IMG/VR virus record: IMGVR_UViG_3300031088_000007
Coordinates: 1-6,150 of that record
Reading direction: 5' to 3' (one strand)
DNA length: 6,150 nucleotides
Origin: a virus
A model generated the notes under the pieces. It searched no databases, was not told the DNA's origin, and saw nothing but the letters and a program-made list of their open reading frames with translations. The position numbers and the translations under genes are program-made. How positions within the stretch are numbered: the first letter of the stretch is position 1; every line of letters begins with the position of its first letter. Below are positions 1 through 6,150 of this stretch, piece by piece.

Positions 1-236
1 CGGTAGAAACCAAGGCCCGTCCTTCGGCGGTAAAAGCCCGTCCCTACGGGCGGTAGAAGCCAAGGCCCGTCCTTCGGCGGTAAAGGCCCGTCCCTACGGG
101 CGGTAGAAGCCAAGGCCCGTCCTTCGGCGGTAAAAGCCCGTCCCTACGGGCGGTAGAAACCAAAGCCCGTCCTTCGGCGGTAAAAGCCCGTCCCTACGGG
201 CGGTAGAAGCCAAGGCCCGTCCTTCGGCGGTAGAAC
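1..236. repeat. Tandem array of a 50-bp unit: 4 full copies plus a partial fifth, truncated by the window edge
   Basis: The unit cggtagaaaccaaggcccgtccttcggcggtaaaagcccgtccctacggg repeats at 1-50, 51-100, 101-150, 151-200 and 201-~236. Copies differ by A/G substitutions at unit positions 9, 14 and 35. Each unit is two related half-repeats of 27 and 23 bp, each carrying a short GC stem-loop (ccg-tcctt-cgg and gcccg-tcccta-cgggc). A 50-bp period is not a multiple of 3. Confidence 0.95.
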
Positions 237-257
237 ATAGGCCAGTCCTCGTTAACG

Positions 258-282
258 AAAAAAAGGGGCACGAAGCCCCTTT
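258..282 (-). terminator. Rho-independent terminator after the major coat gene
   Basis: The minus strand reads AAAGGGGC-TTCGT-GCCCCTTT and the trailing T-run totals seven. The GGGGC/GCCCC stem is extended by A:T pairs. It lies about 20 nt downstream of the coat gene stop, as with the gVIII terminator in Ff phages. Confidence 0.8.
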
Positions 283-301
283 AGTGATCCAGCAGGCCGA
301 T

Positions 302-427
302 TTAACGGACGACGCGACGGACCCAGCCGACAGCCGCGATAGCGACCACGACACCGATGATGACGACACCAGCACCACCGATATCGGTGACGGCTGTACC
401 TGCTGCAGTTTTGATGGCTTCCAACAT
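302..427 (-). CDS. Major coat protein (pVIII-like, class II Pf3/Xf style, no signal peptide), 41 aa
   Basis: Hand translation gives MLEAIKTAAGTAVTDIGGAGVVIIGVVVAIAAVGWVRRVVR. It has an acidic/amphipathic N-terminus, an IGG motif, a hydrophobic helix and a basic C-terminal WVRRVVR. GGGAG lies 9 nt upstream. The ATG overlaps the upstream stop (TAATG). A terminator follows. It is absent from the supplied ORF track, apparently because it is short. Confidence 0.85.
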   Translation of the reverse strand: MLEAIKTAAGTAVTDIGGAGVVIIGVVVAIAAVGWVRRVVR

Positions 428-678
428 TATTCAGAACTCCCTGAGTGGTTTTGAACTACATTTATTAAGGCCCGAACACCCCACGCTGTCGCCCATACAG
501 ACACGATCATCGCGGAAATATAAGACCCATCTTCGGCAGAAAGAGACAGCAGGCTGTTTGCCAATTCAGCCCCACTTTGGACAACGTATTGGCACGTTGA
601 CAAATCTGTAGCAGTCGGGTCGAGACGCAGCACCAAGGAACCGTCTGGCTGCTGGACCGCCCGAACGCAACTAGCCAT
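427..678 (-). CDS. Hypothetical 83-aa protein with a C-terminal hydrophobic helix (candidate minor virion or assembly protein, pVII/pIX position)
   Basis: The ORF sits between the ssb-like gene and the coat gene and is coupled at both ends by TAATG overlaps. It has a hydrophobic segment ISAMIVSVWATAWGVRALINVV. No family was recognised by eye. Confidence 0.55.
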   Translation of the reverse strand: MASCVRAVQQPDGSLVLRLDPTATDLSTCQYVVQSGAELANSLLSLSAEDGSYISAMIVSVWATAWGVRALINVVQNHSGSSE

Positions 679-983
679 TACGCGGCCTTGCGCTCAGCTT
701 CAGCGAAGCCGGTAATGGTGGTTTTGTATTCGCCTTGATACGGACGCAGTTCGATGGTCACGTCGAGGACGCAGGGGAACTTCACACCGGCGCACGACTG
801 GACGACAGCGGCGCTCTGGACAGGCATCTCGATCAGCTCGTAACCGAAGCCCTCGACGGTCATGCCGCCCATCTTGCCGGGCTGGATCGGAGCCAACGTA
901 AGCATGTTCATCATGTCGTAGGGATTCTTGCTCTCTTTGCCAATACCATGGCCGCGCTTGATTCCAGCACAAAACAATTTCAT
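678..983 (-). CDS. Putative ssDNA-binding protein (pV-like), 101 aa
   Basis: Size and position (upstream of the coat module) fit pV. A strong RBS, GAGGGGGA, lies about 5 nt before the ATG. The stretch GIGKESKNPYDMMNML loosely recalls the Ff pV RQGKPYSLNEQL region. The function is inferred mainly from synteny. Confidence 0.6.
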   Translation of the reverse strand: MKLFCAGIKRGHGIGKESKNPYDMMNMLTLAPIQPGKMGGMTVEGFGYELIEMPVQSAAVVQSCAGVKFPCVLDVTIELRPYQGEYKTTITGFAEAERKAA

Positions 984-1008
984 GGGTTCCCCCTCAGTAA
1001 TTTAGGAA

Positions 1009-1034
1009 TTTAGGTAAAAACTAATTTACCTAAA
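1009..1034. promoter_or_regulatory. Perfect 10-bp inverted repeat (operator candidate) in a divergent intergenic region
   Basis: tttaggtaaa (1009-1018), 6-nt spacer, tttacctaaa (1025-1034). An additional direct copy of aatttagg lies at 998-1005. The repeat sits between the minus-strand ssb-like start (983) and the plus-strand RHH-like start (1099). On the minus strand, TAAATT -10-like hexamers overlap it. Confidence 0.55.
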
Positions 1035-1098
1035 AAGTAATGCAGCGAGGCAAATACTAATTCGCCTAAACTACTACGTCCAGTTTTTTAGTTTCCGT

Positions 1099-1296
1099 AT
1101 GGCCATGAAGACAACCTCCACCCTGAACGTTTCACCCGGTTTGCATAAAATCGTGAAGGTTGGAGCAGCAGAAAACGGCTGGAAACTGGGAGAATATGCC
1201 GATGCGGTAATAGAAATTGGCCTAAAACATTTGCAGGAAGTTAAGGAATTGATGGATTCGAGAACTAATGTTTCCACCGATGCAATTGACAAATAA
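1099..1296 (+). CDS. Putative ribbon-helix-helix (Arc/CopG/MetJ-like) DNA-binding protein, 65 aa; the only plus-strand gene
   Basis: MAMKTTSTLNVSPGLHKIVKVGAAENGWKLGEYADAVIEIGLKHLQEV fits a beta-strand (STLNVS), helix A, G-containing turn and helix B pattern. The composition is charged and protein-like, whereas the antisense ORF 1074..1316 is Ser/Cys/Phe-rich. No clear Shine-Dalgarno was seen. The gene lies in a low-GC island. Confidence 0.5.
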   Translation: MAMKTTSTLNVSPGLHKIVKVGAAENGWKLGEYADAVIEIGLKHLQEVKELMDSRTNVSTDAIDK

Positions 1297-1302
1297 AGTG
1301 TC

Positions 1303-2427
1303 TCAAAATGGCACAATTTTTTGCAGATGATTGAAGTACCCAGCTTTGATCAGGCGCTTTGAGTCAGAGCCGGAGTCGAGCGCCTTGCATATCTCTTCGG
1401 GAGTGTTGCCCAATTTCAACAGGCTATGTACCAGAGAGCCGTACGAGTTGCGAGCGTTGAGCTTCATCTTTTCGATTTCGGCCTCAGTCTCCGTCAACCT
1501 CAAGGCAGGCCGGACCCCGTCAGCAAGCCCAATCACGCGAGCGCAGAACGGGTAAGCCCCGGCGAAGTACTCGTCACGCCGAAAGAGCATCGCGTACTGG
1601 TCACTATCCAAGTCGCGGTCAGCATTGGTATACCGCACCTCTGCACGCAGCCACTCAACCACAGACACGTCACCTACGCACCCGACAGACCCGTCGATCC
1701 TGTACGAGACGACATCTAGCTCGGTCTGGTCTTCCAGCCACTGAGCAGGCAGCTTGCCGAACTGCTCAAGCCCCTTCTCGTAAATGCAAATACGCTTGCT
1801 ACTGGATGGCGCACCAACGTACAAAGTCCTCCCCATGTTGCCGTATGACCCTTCGGAGCCGTGACGTTGACAGGAAGGCTTACGTCCCCCTGCTTTCAGC
1901 TGAAACTCACCAGCAGCCAATGCAGCCTCTGCATCATCGTAAGTGACCTCCCCGTAGTAGAAATCGAGCGCGTAGTCGATTCGGGTCAATCTTGCGCGCA
2001 CCTCAATTAGCATGTGCTGGACAAGCTCGACCCTGTAATCACACCATTGCTTGCAGGCAGCACCGGAGAAGGAAACGAAATTCCGCCCATGCGGAGCACC
2101 CCATGCCATCAAACCGATGTTCTCGCCGTTTTGCATCAGCTGAGCTGATTTTGGGTACCCTTGCCAACCGCGGGGTTGTTCACGGAATTGAAGATCGAGA
2201 GTGAACGATTCAGCATAACGTTGCAATTCGGCAACGGGTTGCATTGAAGTAAAAGAAAGGTAATCTATCTTGCATTTTTGGCTACTTTGAGCCTGAAAAA
2301 TGGCAATTTGGGGGGGGGAAACTAGGTTACCCCCCGTGTTACTAGACGGGGGGCCGAAGTTGGCGACTTCGGAAAGGTCGAGAGAATCGACGTCAAAATC
2401 TGAAAAACCGTCTACAATTCCGGTCAT
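1303..2427 (-). CDS. Rolling-circle replication initiator, Rep_trans type (CTXphi RstA / pT181 RepC-like family)
   Basis: Motifs read by eye: IDYLSFT, TRIDYALDF, TLYVGAPSSSKRICIYEKG and WLRAEVRY. The track start at 2433 is a TTG. I prefer the ATG at 2427 (MTGIVDGF...), which has AGGG 7 nt upstream. The CDS contains a C9 homopolymer. Confidence 0.8.
   Translation of the reverse strand: MTGIVDGFSDFDVDSLDLSEVANFGPPSSNTGGNLVSPPQIAIFQAQSSQKCKIDYLSFTSMQPVAELQRYAESFTLDLQFREQPRGWQGYPKSAQLMQNGENIGLMAWGAPHGRNFVSFSGAACKQWCDYRVELVQHMLIEVRARLTRIDYALDFYYGEVTYDDAEAALAAGEFQLKAGGRKPSCQRHGSEGSYGNMGRTLYVGAPSSSKRICIYEKGLEQFGKLPAQWLEDQTELDVVSYRIDGSVGCVGDVSVVEWLRAEVRYTNADRDLDSDQYAMLFRRDEYFAGAYPFCARVIGLADGVRPALRLTETEAEIEKMKLNARNSYGSLVHSLLKLGNTPEEICKALDSGSDSKRLIKAGYFNHLQKIVPF
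2300..2308. repeat. G9 (C9 on the coding strand) homopolymer inside the rep N-terminal region
   Basis: The plus strand reads tttgggggggggaaa. The coding strand reads GTT TCC CCC CCC CAA (VSPPQ). A complementary C6 run lies at 2320-2325. Confidence 0.9.
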
Positions 2428-2502
2428 TGGCAAGCCCTAAGCTATTTGTCAATCAACCCCGGGATGCGTCAACATCGCCGGGATTTTTCGTTTCTAAGGT
2501 TC

Positions 2503-2519
2503 CCGTCCCTGAGGGACGG
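2503..2519. promoter_or_regulatory. 7-bp stem / 3-nt loop hairpin in the rep-upstream intergenic region (origin element candidate)
   Basis: The sequence is ccgtccc-tga-gggacgg. The cccgtccct string (2502-2510) is the same 9-mer that forms the core of the 50-bp tandem array. Confidence 0.5.
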
Positions 2520-2531
2520 TCTGCATACACT

Positions 2532-2553
2532 GGGGAGGATGATCACCTACCCC
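2532..2553. promoter_or_regulatory. 22-bp imperfect dyad in the rep-upstream intergenic region
   Basis: ggggaggatgatcacctacccc has outer GGGG/CCCC arms. The core GG(A)TGATCACC is a perfect 10-bp palindrome apart from one extra A. Function unknown. Confidence 0.4.
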
Positions 2554-2633
2554 TAACTACCGACACGCACCAACACAAACGCTCACAATTGCTAGACTCA
2601 CCCGTCTGAGTGGTTTAGCAGGAAAGAGGTGTT

Positions 2634-2909
2634 TTAGCGTTTCCTCAACAAACGATCCCGCAGGATACGCTCGACCGCCTGACCCAGCGTCAAATCCTCT
2701 GCATCAGACTTTTTCCGATCCACGTAAGCACGGAGAGCGCAAGCGACCTCTTGGTCAAGATCGAGCGTCATGGTCTCAAGACCAGCAGCCGCTAACCGAG
2801 CACGATACGCAGCCATACGACTAGCACCAGTAGCAGCCTTGCCAGTGGCCGGACGCCCCCGACGCTTTGCAACGCCGGGCAGTTCCATTGTTACCTCATC
2901 CTTGCGCAT
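2634..2909 (-). CDS. Small basic putative DNA-binding regulator, 91 aa (N-terminal RGRP arm, possible C-terminal RHH-like fold)
   Basis: The N-terminus KRRGRPATGKAATGASRMAAYRARL is basic. The C-terminus MTLDLDQEVACALRAYVDRK...LTLGQAVERILRDRL fits a strand-helix-helix pattern. AGGGGGA precedes the ATG at 2909. An alternative start at 2888 (MELPG) is preceded by GAGG. Twin palindromes and a TATAAT box lie directly upstream. Confidence 0.6.
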   Translation of the reverse strand: MRKDEVTMELPGVAKRRGRPATGKAATGASRMAAYRARLAAAGLETMTLDLDQEVACALRAYVDRKKSDAEDLTLGQAVERILRDRLLRKR

Positions 2910-2932
2910 AATTCCCCCTATCCAATAAATCT

Positions 2933-2938
2933 ATTATA
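2933..2938 (-). promoter_or_regulatory. Consensus -10 box (TATAAT on the minus strand) upstream of the regulator gene
   Basis: Plus-strand attata at 2933-2938 reads TATAAT on the minus strand, about 24 nt upstream of the ATG at 2909. It abuts the proximal palindrome. No good -35 was found at 16-18 bp spacing. Confidence 0.5.
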
Positions 2939-2939
2939 C

Positions 2940-2951
2940 GTCACTTGTGAC
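2940..2951. promoter_or_regulatory. Operator candidate O1: perfect 12-bp palindrome GTCACTTGTGAC
   Basis: GTCAC-TT-GTGAC lies immediately upstream of the TATAAT box, in the promoter spacer position on the minus strand. Confidence 0.6.
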
Positions 2952-2970
2952 AGGAATACGGGTTTTATTT

Positions 2971-2984
2971 CGTCACTTGTGACG
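2971..2984. promoter_or_regulatory. Operator candidate O2: the same palindrome, extended to 14 bp (CGTCACTTGTGACG)
   Basis: This is an exact second copy of cgtcacttgtgac, 32 bp (about 3 helical turns) from O1. Confidence 0.6.
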
Positions 2985-3004
2985 GTTATTTTATGGGGAA
3001 GTTT

Positions 3005-3053
3005 GGACCCCCGGTCCTCGCGCCCGGCGGTGCGGGCGCGGTCCCTCGGGTCC
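3005..3053. other. GC-rich compound stem-loop just downstream of the zot-like stop
   Basis: The outer stem is ggaccc (3005-3010) with gggtcc (3048-3053). The inner 8-bp stem is cgcgcccg (3019-3026) with cgggcgcg (3033-3040), with a 6-nt loop. An alternative small hairpin is ggacc-ccc-ggtcc (3005-3017). No U-tract follows on the minus strand. Confidence 0.5.
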
Positions 3054-3054
3054 A

Positions 3055-4269
3055 CTATGGCGCAGCAGGAGCAGGAACCGTAGCAGTCCTGACATTAGGC
3101 CGATTAGGTGGCCCGGTTTCGGTATCAGCAGCAGGCCGCATAGGGCCAGAAAGCGTGTCAGGAGCCTCGTTAAAGGCGATGACCTGTGGCGCACCATAGT
3201 TCTGACGCAAAGGCACATCAGGCGTCGCCTGCAGTGTCTGAGCACTCCTATTGGCTGTCTGTTCGTCACGACGCGCAGGCTCAGGGTCAAAATCCATGAA
3301 CCGACCATTGCGCGCGATCGACATGCACATGTTGAAATCAATATCCATCGGCGTAGCCTGCTGCGTATAGCACTTACACCGGATCTCTTTGCCGGCGACA
3401 GAGACAGATCCGATCTGCACACACATCGCCGGCACAGGCACCCGCACAGGCACTGTCAAAGCGTCATATTTCGGCGCAGTCTCAGGAAGGGACACTACGC
3501 GAGGCGTCTGATTGAACATGTACTTTTTGGCGTCAGCAACCGGATCGACCTCATCTGGCGGTGAAGCCTGAGAAACGTTCGCCGTATCGACCACGTTCAC
3601 AGCACCGGGGCCGCCGAAATCAGCAGAGTGCTGGTCAGGTTCTTTCTCATAGCGAGACGCGTATTTCTTCATCACGAACCAGCCTGAGAAGATGACCAGG
3701 AGGACGAACCCAATCGCGAGGAAAATCTTGGCGGGGATGGCACGCTTGACGGTGTGGACTTCAGCACTCTTGTAGTAGCCGAACACCTCCTTTGGATATT
3801 TCCACTTGAACGGAATAGCGGACTTTTGCGCGGCCTGATTTTGGGGAGCGGGGTTACAAGCGGACCATTCGTAAATCGTCGCCCGGTTCATGCCGAACTT
3901 ACGAACAGCGTGGAAATGCTGCCCGACGAGCTGGCGAACAAAGTTGTCGACCAAGGAAGGATGCTGCGTGATCAGGTAAATGTCGATGCCCTTGTGCCGG
4001 TGCGTAGCAAGCTCGTCGTAATGAGCAGGGAGCTTGGCGCCATTGGGCTTCTTCGGGAACACAAATTGCGCCTCATCGAGAACGACGATGGACCCTGCAG
4101 GGCAATCCATCCATTCCTCGGGCTTTTCTAGAGCAGTCCAAGGAAGGTTCAAGTCCTTGATGTTGTTGTAGAAAACTTCGCGCTGTTCGAGCTCGGCTTT
4201 GCGCTTGATAAACCACAACGCGTAGAGAGTTTTGCCGTTACCCGGCAGGCCAGTAATCAGCGTAATCAT
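3055..4269 (-). CDS. zot: Zot / pI-like phage assembly ATPase, 404 aa
   Basis: The N-terminus MITLITGLPGNGKTLYALW carries a Walker A motif (GLPGNGKT), and IVVLDEAQ is a Walker B motif. A central TM helix is IFLAIGFVLLVIFSGWFVM. The C-terminal domain is Cys-containing with a Pro/Ala-rich tail. The start overlaps the upstream stop (ATGA). Confidence 0.9.
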   Translation of the reverse strand: MITLITGLPGNGKTLYALWFIKRKAELEQREVFYNNIKDLNLPWTALEKPEEWMDCPAGSIVVLDEAQFVFPKKPNGAKLPAHYDELATHRHKGIDIYLITQHPSLVDNFVRQLVGQHFHAVRKFGMNRATIYEWSACNPAPQNQAAQKSAIPFKWKYPKEVFGYYKSAEVHTVKRAIPAKIFLAIGFVLLVIFSGWFVMKKYASRYEKEPDQHSADFGGPGAVNVVDTANVSQASPPDEVDPVADAKKYMFNQTPRVVSLPETAPKYDALTVPVRVPVPAMCVQIGSVSVAGKEIRCKCYTQQATPMDIDFNMCMSIARNGRFMDFDPEPARRDEQTANRSAQTLQATPDVPLRQNYGAPQVIAFNEAPDTLSGPMRPAADTETGPPNRPNVRTATVPAPAAP

Positions 4270-4565
4270 TTAAGCACCATCTTTTTGAGCGTACCGCCAA
4301 GCGCACGCATCGTGAGGGAGACAGCAACGGCAGAAAACACCACGGACAGGGCCTTGTCCATCCAGAGGTAGCCGACGAGCTGGAGAGCATCAGCAGGCAT
4401 CCCACGGACACCACTGATTGCAGCGTCCTTGAGAAAACCGATACCAGTATCGATGCCCTTGTAGCTGACGAAGCCAACGCCGAGGGCGAGGATAGCGCGA
4501 CCGATCAAGGTAGCCATCGACGCGGCCAGCGCGCCCATGAGGGCAGGAATGAAGAGTGCAAACAT
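4266..4565 (-). CDS. pVI-like small integral membrane protein, 99 aa
   Basis: The protein has multiple hydrophobic helices (MFALFIPALMGALAASMATLIGRAILALGVGFV, ALSVVFSAVAVSLTM). It occupies the typical pVI/Ace position between the pIII-like and zot-like genes. AAGGG lies 6 nt upstream of the ATG. It may belong to the small membrane protein family found upstream of zot genes, which would need an HMM check. Confidence 0.7.
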   Translation of the reverse strand: MFALFIPALMGALAASMATLIGRAILALGVGFVSYKGIDTGIGFLKDAAISGVRGMPADALQLVGYLWMDKALSVVFSAVAVSLTMRALGGTLKKMVLK

Positions 4566-4568
4566 GAT

Positions 4569-5972
4569 TTACCCTTGAAGGACAGAACGCGACACGATCA
4601 TGTACGCGAGGATGAGAGCGCAGGCCATGACGACACCGCGCAAAGGCTGGATGTTGGTGCAAAGCTGCCCGAACTCGACAGTCACAGAGCGCCCCATCAC
4701 AGTCATGGTTTTGTTAGGCAGGCAGGACCCACCACCGATGAAGCCTGTCTGATCTAGGCCGGGCTTGCTGAGGTCAATCTCAGTACCCTTCATCGTCTCT
4801 TCGATCTTCGCTTTCATGGGATCAGCACCCGAGAGGATCGAGTTACCAAGGGCAGTTTGAGGCGATGCTTTCAACGCGTCCTCATCAGCCTTACCCCTAC
4901 ATTCCATGGCAGCGGCCGCACGCAGAGTAGCGCACTGGACAGCATCGCCAACGCACTGAATCTGGCCACAGGTACCAGTGACAGAACCTTCACGACACAC
5001 AGAAAGATTGGGATTGGTCTTGCACAGATCGTATTTGTCATCCTCAGTAGGACGGTCAGCTTTACCAGCGGCACCGGAAGGAGTAGCAGAGGTGTCAGCG
5101 GTACCAGACGTTGTCTTTGTACCGTCCGGTTTCGTGGCTGTAACCGTAACGGTCTTCGTCGTGGAGCCATCAGCGTTTGTCGTTATGACGGTCTTCGTGT
5201 TGGTGGTGGTGCCATCCGCAGCCGTCTCGTTTTTCTCCGTCTCAGTTTTCGGCTGCACGGGCTTAGCCGGAGGCGTCGAACCTGTACCGATGCACATGGG
5301 GATGCCTGACAGACTCATACCCGCGTGAACGGTACCAGCTGGACATGGCCCCTTGCCGGGGTCGTCAGTCGGTTTAGGCGGGTTCTCGATAGGGGGCGAC
5401 TTCACAGGAGGATCGGCAGGGACCTCCGGGGTATCGTTGCCACCGACGCCGGGCTTGTCCTCACCAGTGAATTTCTCTCCAGTGCGCTTCACCATCCACA
5501 TGCAGTAGGAGCCTGTTGCAGACTTCCGGCAGACCATCATTTCCATGGCGGTGACAACACAGCCAGCGTAGCTACCGGGCGCGCTATACGGGCCAGCAGC
5601 TGGATAGTTCCAGCGGCGAACGATAGGGTTTTTGTCAGCACATGGATCAGGGACGACCTCGGGAGGAACCGCTTTCGCCTGGCATCTTCCGAGAGCATTG
5701 TTGAAGTACGGTTCGTCGGCATAGCAAGTCCGAGGATAGACCGCCAGATACCGCTGCTCATCAGCACCGATTTTTCCGTAGCAATCCGACCCTCCAATCA
5801 AGCGAGTGAATACGATTCCATTCACGGCACCACGTTTGCAAGCGTCAAGGGCAGTAGTTCCATTAACCCCTGAGCTGCTGCCGTAATAGCTGTCAGCGGC
5901 AAAAGCCAGCCCAGAGAACAGAGCAAGCGAGAAGCCAACAAGACCCCATGCAAAGAGCCGTAGCGCCCTCAT
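4569..5972 (-). CDS. pIII-like minor coat / adsorption protein, about 467 aa from the preferred start
   Basis: The preferred ATG at 5972 gives a classic signal peptide, MRALRLFAWGLVGFSLALFSGLAFA-AD. After it come a Cys-rich N-domain, a Pro-rich linker (PEVPADPPVKSPPIENPPKPTDDP), a Thr-rich repetitive linker, a Cys-rich C-domain and a C-terminal anchor VVMACALILAYMIV. The track start at 6062 is a GTG abutting the repeat array and is unlikely. Confidence 0.75.
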   Translation of the reverse strand: MRALRLFAWGLVGFSLALFSGLAFAADSYYGSSSGVNGTTALDACKRGAVNGIVFTRLIGGSDCYGKIGADEQRYLAVYPRTCYADEPYFNNALGRCQAKAVPPEVVPDPCADKNPIVRRWNYPAAGPYSAPGSYAGCVVTAMEMMVCRKSATGSYCMWMVKRTGEKFTGEDKPGVGGNDTPEVPADPPVKSPPIENPPKPTDDPGKGPCPAGTVHAGMSLSGIPMCIGTGSTPPAKPVQPKTETEKNETAADGTTTNTKTVITTNADGSTTKTVTVTATKPDGTKTTSGTADTSATPSGAAGKADRPTEDDKYDLCKTNPNLSVCREGSVTGTCGQIQCVGDAVQCATLRAAAAMECRGKADEDALKASPQTALGNSILSGADPMKAKIEETMKGTEIDLSKPGLDQTGFIGGGSCLPNKTMTVMGRSVTVEFGQLCTNIQPLRGVVMACALILAYMIVSRSVLQG

Positions 5973-6028
5973 CGCAGCAAAATCCAGAACGCACCACACA
6001 CAGCAATAATCACAGCGAAACCAGCCAT
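5969..6028 (-). CDS. Candidate 19-aa hydrophobic micro-protein upstream of, and coupled to, the pIII-like gene
   Basis: Hand translation gives ATG GCT GGT TTC GCT GTG ATT ATT GCT GTG TGT GGT GCG TTC TGG ATT TTG CTG CGA TGA = MAGFAVIIAVCGAFWILLR. A perfect GGAGG (6038..6034) lies 5 nt upstream. The stop overlaps the pIII-like ATG (ATGA). Not in the ORF track. Confidence 0.45.
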   Translation of the reverse strand: MAGFAVIIAVCGAFWILLR

Positions 6029-6067
6029 AGACACCTCCACACGTTAATGAAAATTGAAGCACCAGAA

Positions 6068-6150
6068 CCCGTCCCTACGGGCGGTAGAAACCAAGGCCCG
6101 TCCTTCGGCGGTAAAAGCCCGTCCCTACGGGCGGTAGAAGCCAAGGCCCG
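6068..6150. repeat. The same 50-bp tandem repeat array, entered from the other side
   Basis: A partial unit cccgtccctacggg lies at 6068-6081. Then 6082-6131 is identical to unit 1 (1-50), and 6132-6150 is identical to 51-69. The variant positions allow only this one register against the left-end array. Confidence 0.95.

Follow-up and report, generated by a model that had tools for sequence, protein, structure and literature searches.

An Omega-like ribbon-helix-helix gene and a putative iterated operator between rep and the ssb-coat genes of small inoviruses

Introduction

What is a low-G+C island with a gene of its own, pointing the opposite way, doing between the replication initiator gene (rep) and the gene for a putative single-stranded DNA (ssDNA)-binding protein (ssb) of a small inovirus? 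The question is raised by positions 984 to 1,302 of the DNA analysed here, which is IMG/VR record IMGVR_UViG_3300031088_000007 from position 1 to 6,150 (this whole 6,150-nt stretch is called the window below) and amounts to about one complete small inovirus. To our knowledge, virion-level control in filamentous phages is understood in a few models only, namely translational repression by pV in Ff, RstR and LexA in CTXphi, and Pf4r in Pf4. The answer argued here, which is held to be reasonably probable, is that the island consists of an Omega-like autoregulated repressor and its operator, that together they gate expression of the genes from ssb to coat, and that the arrangement is conserved in a clade of small, mostly uncultured inoviruses. 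The parts would then be familiar ones, an Omega-like regulator of the ribbon-helix-helix (RHH) class with an iterated operator, found in an unusual but recurrent slot of the inovirus genome.

The two features at the centre of the argument are as follows.

984..1104, no strand assigned: divergent control region between the RstB-like gene (ssb) and the RHH gene, 36.5% G+C over 984-1098
1105..1296, plus strand: gene for the predicted RHH (Omega-like) regulator, 63 amino acids, or 65 from an alternative ATG at 1099

A gene under selection in a low-G+C island

A preliminary description of this DNA had placed an island of about 40% G+C at this site, and the count bears that out. G+C is 41.1% over 984-1302 and 39.7% over 991-1320; the open reading frame (ORF) has 43.4% and the 115-bp intergenic region (984-1098) the value listed above, compared with 55.0% for the whole window, 54.1% for the remainder of rep and 56.5% for the RstB-like gene. 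The island is the lowest-G+C stretch of its size in the genome, the minimum for a 319-nt segment being reached from about position 999 (39.5%; mean 54.6%, standard deviation 4.2). G+C at third codon positions (GC3) is 0.44 in the ORF and 0.50-0.74 in every other gene. The low-G+C tract had also been said to reach into the end of rep, and the last 20 codons of that gene indeed have about 42% G+C.

The island had been credited with the only plus-strand gene, and ORF 1099..1296 is the one plus-strand ORF of the window with both homologues and a coding signal. As first read it encodes 65 amino acids; the true start is probably the ATG at 1105, because two related phages (L012 and L026) are without the first ATG. 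The ORF ends at 1296 and the stop codon of rep occupies 1303-1305, which gives the 6-nt gap that had been described between these convergent genes.

Twelve loci were compared, consisting of five close lineages (the window, L001, L005, L008 and L012) and seven more distant contigs. Among the close lineages, the pairwise ratio of non-synonymous to synonymous substitution rates (dN/dS) of the ORF is 0.09-0.40, and variable sites are distributed over codon positions 1, 2 and 3 as 16, 8 and 30. Four close homologues (P0001-P0004, with 98, 86, 74 and 67% identity) all occupy the same position in related phage contigs. An exhaustive profile search returned 21 representatives, almost all of 49-83 amino acids, and a second, word-index search returned 24 clusters, nearly all from contigs of about 6 kb; the family diverges to about 30% identity while length and position are kept. 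In all sources the RHH genes of the family are labelled 'hypothetical', and tblastn of the 65-residue protein against phage records gave spurious matches only (E=8). The substitution pattern and the conserved position indicate that the ORF is a real gene under selection. The overlapping minus-strand ORF 1074..1316, which the preliminary description had raised as the possible conserved frame instead, is interrupted by internal stops in L008 and L012 and was ruled out as a real gene.

One member of the family lies in a different setting. P0023, of 49 amino acids, is encoded at 10001-10150 (plus strand) of L017, at a divergent operon junction of a 16-kb contig. This contig is probably that of a tailed phage or of a plasmid and carries a DnaB-like helicase gene as well, so the RHH family extends beyond inoviruses.

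The predicted fold and family of the product

The protein had been described as having an RHH-like pattern, and this is supported by profile and structure comparisons alike. When the family profile is compared with the PDB, the Omega repressor (2bnw, 1irq) is the sole match with E<=1; its E-value is 0.004 when the profile is made from five sequences and 3.2e-4 when it is made from 26, and in the alignment the beta-strand and helix A of the two are in register. Within Pfam, Omega_Repress is matched by 18 of the 24 family members (best 4.6e-7). The same set also matches HicB (10 members), FitA-like RHH (7) and RHH_10 (5), as well as CopG_antitoxin, ParG, ParD and NikA-like families, and precomputed matches to PF07764 exist for P0026 and P0023.

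The AlphaFold2 (AF2) model built on the 26-sequence alignment has a predicted local distance difference test score (pLDDT) of 86, and consists of an extended segment (residues 1-10), two helices (11-24 and 28-41) and an extra helix (43-59). In this modelled monomer the N-terminal segment is extended and unpaired, as expected of an RHH protomer. A Foldseek comparison with the PDB gave RHH proteins at almost all of the top 40 places, among them CopG, Arc, CdbA, SvtR, NikA, MatP and AmrZ, as well as the antitoxins VapB, TacA and AtaR. Over about 42 residues they superpose with a root-mean-square deviation (RMSD) of 1.3-2 A, and with template-modelling (TM) scores, normalised to the target, of up to 0.79. 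An earlier AF2 model from five sequences (pLDDT 68.5, Foldseek E >2) was uninformative and is superseded by the 26-sequence model. Together, the profile match and the model indicate that the product is an RHH protein, a distant relative of the Omega repressor encoded by plasmid pSM19035.

Repeats in the divergent region and their relation to the protein

If the product is a repressor, an operator would be expected nearby, and the divergent region contains the following repeats.

1009..1034: site O1, perfect 10-bp inverted repeat, TTTAGGTAAA (1009-1018)-N6-TTTACCTAAA (1025-1034)
1048..1067: site O2, second palindrome, imperfect, AGGCAAAT-ACTA-ATTCGCCT
996..1075: array of about ten 8-bp units, AGTAATTT AGGAATTT AGGTAAAA ACTAATTT ACCTAAAA AGTAATGC AGCGAGGC AAATACTA ATTCGCCT AAACTACT

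The perfect inverted repeat of the preliminary description was verified at 1009-1034, and in 5000 mononucleotide shuffles of the 115-bp region an arm of at least 10 bp was reached only 7 times. The repeat is kept in L001, L005, L008 and L012, and its arms grow to 11-12 bp in L013 and L026. Direct-repeat copies had been noted as well, and they are present as a tandem pair of AATTTAGG at 999-1014. In the array as a whole, the first six units are alike and the last four are degenerate. Tandem Repeats Finder reports a period of 8 at 999-1014 and a period of 16 at 1007-1041, and the self-similarity of the region is equalled by 33 of 5000 shuffles at lag 8 and by 22 at lag 16. An equally good reading of the inverted repeat is that of a near-palindromic site repeated directly, at 16-bp spacing, within this 8/16-bp array. 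O1 (1012-1031 when put in register) and O2 lie 36 bp apart in the same register, and the segments 1012-1034 and 1048-1070 form a direct-repeat family (D2) with 83% identity.

The divergent region is 89-99% identical within the close clade, while the dS of the ORF reaches 0.6-0.8. A core of 38 bp (1032-1069), which holds O2, is 94.7% identical to that of L025, a phage with a replicase of the CRI type; the RHH protein of L025 has conserved beta-strand residues despite an overall identity of about 50%. Comparable 8-nt arrays are found in L015 (5.2 copies of AAAAGATA), L019, L027 and the cultured Pseudomonas phage PMBT54. The array at 996-1075 is a candidate for an iterated operator of the RHH protein.

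A further link between the repeats and the protein comes from comparing the loci. At all ten loci where the beta-strand reads T[KS]TLN[VI], the divergent region contains one to five copies of TTTAG and no GATAA or AGATA, and these loci include both Rep_trans and CRI phages; TTTAG is enriched about 30- to 100-fold in the divergent region versus the rest of the genome. At both loci where the beta-strand reads LKNLKV (L015, which is CRI, and L028, which is Rep_trans), the repeats are of the GATA type and TTTAG is absent. The repeat motif therefore co-varies with the RHH beta-strand type (TLNV with TTTAG, NLKV with GATAA) and not with the Rep family. The residues that separate the two beta-strand types, T8 and N10 in the window protein with N and K in their place in the other type, align with positions 29 and 31 of Omega, which we take to be the base-contacting residues in Omega-DNA structures.

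The same slot in related phages

The preliminary description had treated the island as an insertion between rep and the ssb-like gene, and an insertion that is recent or peculiar to this genome is not what the relatives reveal: the RHH gene has this position and this orientation, antisense and between rep and the ssb-like gene, at each of the related loci examined. The divergent region of the relatives is 91-131 bp long, has 24-41% G+C and bears repeats. The arrangement of the RHH and rep 3' ends at the twelve loci, with the replicase family, is as follows.

Window, L001, L008: Rep_trans, 6-nt gap
L005, L012: rep cut at the contig end and not typed, 6-nt gap
L013 (L014 is the same phage): Rep_trans, 27-nt gap
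L026: rep cut at the contig end and not typed, 16-nt overlap
L028: Rep_trans, 19-nt overlap
L015, L019, L025, L027: Phage_CRI + G2P_X_C, 56-62-nt overlap

Gene order and family assignments thus indicate that the cassette goes together with the ssb and structural part of the genome, and that it is paired with two unrelated replicase families. The adjacency of rep and the next gene that had been given as typical of other inoviruses is found in PE226, where rep is followed directly by ORF1 (a hypothetical protein by its annotation, unmatched in Pfam) and there is no cassette. It is found again in Dulem virus 61, the widest-coverage match to Rep, which in addition has an opposite-strand gene upstream of rep, in the classical repressor position. 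The architecture defined here as 'antisense regulator between rep and ssb' groups the window clade, its relatives and PMBT54, and literature searches turned up no description of it beyond the PMBT54 annotation.

Conservation of the cassette and its possible causes

The cassette is more conserved than the genes on either side of it. Between the window and L001, identity is 99% in the divergent region and 96% in the ORF, versus 83% in the RstB-like gene and about 80% in rep, and dS is 0.15 in the cassette, 0.87 in the RstB-like gene and 1.27 in rep. Between the window and L008, dS is 0.62 in the cassette and about 3 (saturated) in the flanks, and dN is 0.18 in the cassette and 0.07-0.11 in the flanks. 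The highly conserved block includes the first 28 codons of the RstB-like gene (900-983), which have a dS of 0.34 against L001, compared with 1.13 in the rest of that gene. When the window is compared with L013, 978-1307 is the sole blastn match in the gene region, and the RstB-like proteins of these two phages have just 32% identity; with L026, a match at 978-1315 contrasts with the genes on both sides of it. In both cases the nucleotide similarity stops at the rep stop, and this makes the recombination junction proposed earlier for the 3' end of rep plausible. The excess conservation suggests either recombinational exchange, with junctions near 900 and 1310, or constraint on synonymous sites from a function of the DNA. 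Of the earlier idea of a separately acquired cassette, the part that stands is an evolutionary history of its own (96-99% identity to L001, against about 80% in the flanks), and recent insertion is the part that does not.

Exchange would be the central feature if the cassette (about 900-1310) were a mobile immunity module, swapped between phages much as the rstR-ig2 region of CTXphi, with the RHH protein as a superinfection-immunity repressor and TLNV/TTTAG and NLKV/GATAA as heteroimmune groups. This can be entertained tentatively. The contrast with the flanks in identity and dS to L001 speaks for it, as do the L013 and L026 matches centred on the cassette, the occurrence of the same cassette type with two unrelated Rep families, the deviant GC3 and the strongly mosaic genomes. 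However, the immunity region of CTXphi is the most divergent part of that genome, while the cassette is the most conserved part here, and the low dS may instead mean constraint on the DNA. In addition, the genes of this genome include no integrase and no prophage or lysogeny functions, and scans with the RHH and RstB-like alignments found no copy in 185,579 species-representative genomes (one IMG/VR contig of the same clade did come from the alignment scans). These two results count against an immunity module and fit an episomal carrier lifestyle.

Constraint on the DNA would have another meaning if the island were a cis-acting replication or packaging element, the RHH protein being an accessory origin-binding or copy-number protein (as with CopG and the RHH proteins of relaxosomes) or a centromere binder similar to Omega/ParB. 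RHH proteins do control the rep genes of rolling-circle plasmids, CopG of pMV158 being an example. The very strong nucleotide conservation, synonymous sites included, is in line with such an element, both palindromes would be able to form hairpins in the virion strand, and Omega is also a centromere-binding protein (PMC9499535). Nonetheless, this explanation is unlikely. The repeat type follows the RHH type and not Rep, and the TTTAG array and the 38-bp core are common to Rep_trans and Phage_CRI phages; a function as origin is improbable because the repeats are common to phages with unrelated replicases. The ssDNA of the divergent region folds no better than shuffles (z = -1.47), the partition version lacks a ParA-like gene in the genome, and better candidates for an origin or packaging site exist in an array of 50-nt hairpin units (1-232) and a conserved block at 2280-2520 (see below).

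An orphan antitoxin, an anti-defence protein or an unexpressed ORF conserved at the DNA level only is very improbable: weak family matches to HicB, FitA-like, CopG_antitoxin and ParD and the unusually low dS speak for such readings, but an antitoxin has no partner gene here (the convergent rep stop follows 6 nt on, there is no other plus-strand gene, and the lack of an adjacent toxin gene, true at all 12 related loci, is why it was rejected), and conservation of the DNA alone is contradicted by dN/dS <1, the third-position excess across the family and the confident fold prediction.

A model for gating of the ssb-coat block

The reading of the island as a repressor and its operator can be turned into a mechanism, in which we infer DNA binding to the repeats, the direction of regulation, the positions of the promoters and the physiological outcome. 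Dimers of the RHH protein would coat the 8-bp sub-sites of 996-1075 cooperatively, in direct and inverted orientation, including the inverted repeat at 1009-1034. The bound protein would repress its own promoter, which should be located in or near the 115-bp region because the RHH gene is the only plus-strand gene. It would also repress, or act as a roadblock to, transcription into the block of RstB-like, 83-residue and coat genes, whether this transcription begins at a local promoter or reads through from rep. Expression of the initiator would in this way be uncoupled from that of the ssDNA-sequestering and virion genes, and the resulting ceiling on virion production could lead to a carrier state and possibly to superinfection immunity. 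Because the 3' ends of the RHH gene and of rep adjoin or overlap in every relative, transcription of the two genes must run head-on, and this may add to the control.

Several observations weigh against an Omega-like repressor with an operator at this site. The window protein itself matches PF07764 (Omega_Repress) with 16.9 bits (E=0.008), below the gathering cut-off of 33.3 bits; by this measure it is a remote relative of Omega_Repress and not a formal Pfam member. The Foldseek E-values are 0.2-1 and none is individually significant, the domain being small. The co-variation of protein and repeat has only two loci of the second type behind it, and the loci are related by descent. The 38-bp core is kept even though the RHH protein of L025 is only about 50% identical, and so the core could be a promoter or a site for a host factor instead. 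The unusually low dS of the ORF hints at an extra constraint on the DNA, which the repressor model leaves unexplained. There is no obvious Shine-Dalgarno sequence before the ATG at 1105. Finally, a consensus scan for sigma-70-like promoters found none in 900-1400 and only one in the whole window. The -10-like hexamers that the preliminary description had seen in the divergent region are thus unconfirmed; inspection by hand gave weak candidates only, and no promoter is claimed.

Transcription from the two sides of the convergent junction was considered as well. One further feature lies there.

1297..1314, plus strand: the 6-nt gap after the RHH ORF, then a weak hairpin and T-run overlapping the rep stop and last codons, a possible weak terminator for the RHH transcript (terminator-like match at 1298-1314)

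The fold of 1298-1314 is no better than that of shuffles (z = -0.25), and a functional terminator is not claimed. On the minus strand, a terminator scan found no terminator-like site after rep.

A more elaborate version of the repressor model is put forward as a doubtful possibility. In it, rep and the RHH gene would be transcribed head-on without an effective terminator, and this, together with a roadblock formed by an RHH filament, would give a two-state circuit that chooses between maintenance of the replicative form and virion production. The cassette (about 900-1310) would at the same time define the immunity type and move between non-integrating inoviruses with unrelated replicases.

The position of the cassette gives the simpler repressor-operator model its interest. 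A regulator between rep and the ssb and coat genes would allow the rep:ssb ratio to be set transcriptionally, and this ratio decides between double-stranded replication and single-strand production. The cassette thereby suggests a different and recurrent solution to the problem of persistent, tolerable virion production. It is also compact (63 amino acids plus about 80 bp) and comes in at least two natural pairings of protein and repeat, which makes RHH-DNA recognition testable and provides candidate parts for orthogonal repressor/operator pairs. Should the ordinary reading be true, the result would be one more small phage repressor, useful and unsurprising.

Relation to known systems

Omega (ParB_pSM of Streptococcus pyogenes pSM19035, PF07764) resembles the window protein in being a small RHH protein, and it acts on arrays of short repeats to which the candidate operator here is comparable, with units of 7 bp for Omega and 8 bp here. 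The repeats that Omega binds lie end to end and in mixed orientations (PMC9499535). The two differ at the base-contact positions, which are T/N here and T/R in Omega, in the extra C-terminal helix predicted here, and in context, an inovirus as opposed to a Firmicute plasmid. No partner of Omega (the ParA ATPase delta, copS or epsilon/zeta) was matched among the 10 genes of the window.

A parallel in gene order is provided by PMBT54 (OR047306.1). In this cultured phage a 64-residue antisense ORF2 (WJZ46451) lies between rep and the ssDNA-binding genes and overlaps the 3' end of rep by 32 nt. ORF2 is annotated as 'MatP_C domain-containing protein', and MatP_C is an RHH-type domain; the authors suggest only an involvement in replication (PMC10534721). 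The ssb gene (ORF5) is preceded, at a distance of about 50 nt, by 3.9 tandem copies of the 8-nt TCGTGTTT (1765-1795). A second, sense-strand Omega-like RHH protein, ORF13, is encoded just upstream of rep, in a position paralleled by the 91-residue gene of the window. The likeness has limits, in that ORF2 has no more than marginal similarity to the family of the window protein (hhalign E=0.003, probability 11%) and the repeat motif TCGTGTTT is a different one. Homology between the window family and ORF13 is unsupported (hhalign E 0.42). The PMBT54 repeats sit inside an annotated 'hypothetical' gene, ORF3 (1663-1797), which may be regulatory repeat DNA and not a gene.

CTXphi offers a comparison, since RstR and ig-2 consist of a small repressor set against the main operon across a short divergent region, in a phage with RstA-like (Rep_trans) and RstB-like genes. 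Comparable repressors of other inoviruses are Pf4r and those of the VGJphi-type and RSM/RSS-type phages. RstR, however, is a helix-turn-helix protein, and its gene is upstream of and divergent from rstA, whereas the predicted regulator of the window is an RHH protein whose gene lies beyond the 3' end of rep, converges on it and is divergent from the RstB-like gene, so that it splits rep from ssb.

Arc and Mnt of P22 and CopG of pMV158 (1par, 1b01, 1ea4) share the predicted fold (Foldseek RMSD 1.4-3 A, target-normalised TM 0.6-0.8). They are small autoregulated repressors in compact promoter regions of mobile elements, and CopG regulates a rolling-circle replicon. They differ in having no detectable sequence similarity to the window protein, in being co-transcribed with their targets or located directly upstream of them, and in using one or two palindromes as operators, not a periodic array of 8-bp units.

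Among cultured phages, the nearest to the window by Zot are the Ralstonia phages PE226 and p12J (about 40% identity), which have a similar inovirus gene order in about 5.5-7 kb. p12J (L021, NC_005131.2) contains an unannotated opposite-strand ORF of 112 amino acids (170-508, minus strand) between rep (ORF9) and the ssDNA-binding ORF1. Its product has weak, sub-threshold matches to HTH_3/Xre-like (helix-turn-helix) families, is not an RHH protein and is unrelated in sequence to the window protein. This ORF is probably a missed regulator gene in the same slot, and its position argues that the same slot seems to be used for a regulator. Two annotations are corrected by these comparisons, that of PMBT54, in which the repeats are labelled as coding (ORF3), and that of p12J, in which the equivalent ORF is missing.

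Genome context and other elements

All recognisable inovirus genes of the window (pIII-like, DUF2523, Zot, Rep_trans, RstB-like and coat B, by Pfam and PHROG) are on the minus strand. In the order of transcription, the genes and the terminator that follows them are as listed here.

6062..4569, minus strand: pIII-like gene
4565..4266, minus strand: DUF2523/pVI-like gene
4269..3055, minus strand: Zot/pI gene
2909..2634, minus strand: gene for a 91-residue protein, upstream of rep
2433..1303, minus strand: rep, replication initiator, Rep_trans/RstA-like (Pfam Rep_trans 6.7e-16, PHROG 453 7e-53), convergent with the RHH gene
983..678, minus strand: RstB-like gene, putative ssDNA-binding (Pfam CTX_RstB 2.5e-7, PHROG 929), divergent from the RHH gene
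678..427, minus strand: gene for an 83-residue protein
427..302, minus strand: coat B gene
282..262: strong intrinsic terminator after coat B

The RstB-like gene heads the block formed by ssb, the 83-residue gene and coat. The whole window matched none of 50,697 GenBank phage records at the nucleotide level, tblastn found no match for the RstB-like protein in phage records, and an Rfam scan of the window gave no family. The two ends of the window share an identical 69 nt, and circular closure is likely, although the closure could be repeat-driven because the 69-nt terminal overlap falls inside an array of 50-nt units.

This array consists of about five tandem copies of the 50-nt unit (96% matches) at window positions 1-232 and 6064-6150, between the terminator of the coat gene and the pIII-like gene. 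Each unit contains two GC-rich hairpins, GCCCGT-CCCT-ACGGGC and CCG-TCCTT-CGG, and similar arrays are found at the same place in L008 and L013. The array may be a packaging signal, an origin or some other cis element.

The genomes of this group are extremely mosaic. The window shares with L001 only 577-2521 (85%), and with the CRI-type L025 it has in common the pIII-like gene (4898-5753, 77%) and the region of the 91-residue gene (2640-2984, 78-82%), and not rep. Within the part shared with L001, a block at 2280-2520, which covers the 5' end of rep and the sequence upstream of it, is 93-98% identical, compared with about 80% for the rest of rep. It contains hairpins of the form G8...C6 (2311-2335) and CCGAAGT...ACTTCGG, and is a candidate for an origin or for a site of rep control.

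The 91-residue gene (2634-2909, minus strand) has no Pfam match and belongs to PHROG families of unknown function only; homology of its product to the RHH family of the window is unsupported (hhalign E 0.13). The protein has a basic N-terminus (RGRPATGK...) and a C-terminal part that looks RHH-like by eye, MTLDLDQEVACALRAYV...LTLGQAVERILRDRL. Upstream of this gene, in the region 2940-2985, the palindrome GTCACTTGTGAC is present in two copies, at about 2940-2951 and about 2970-2981.

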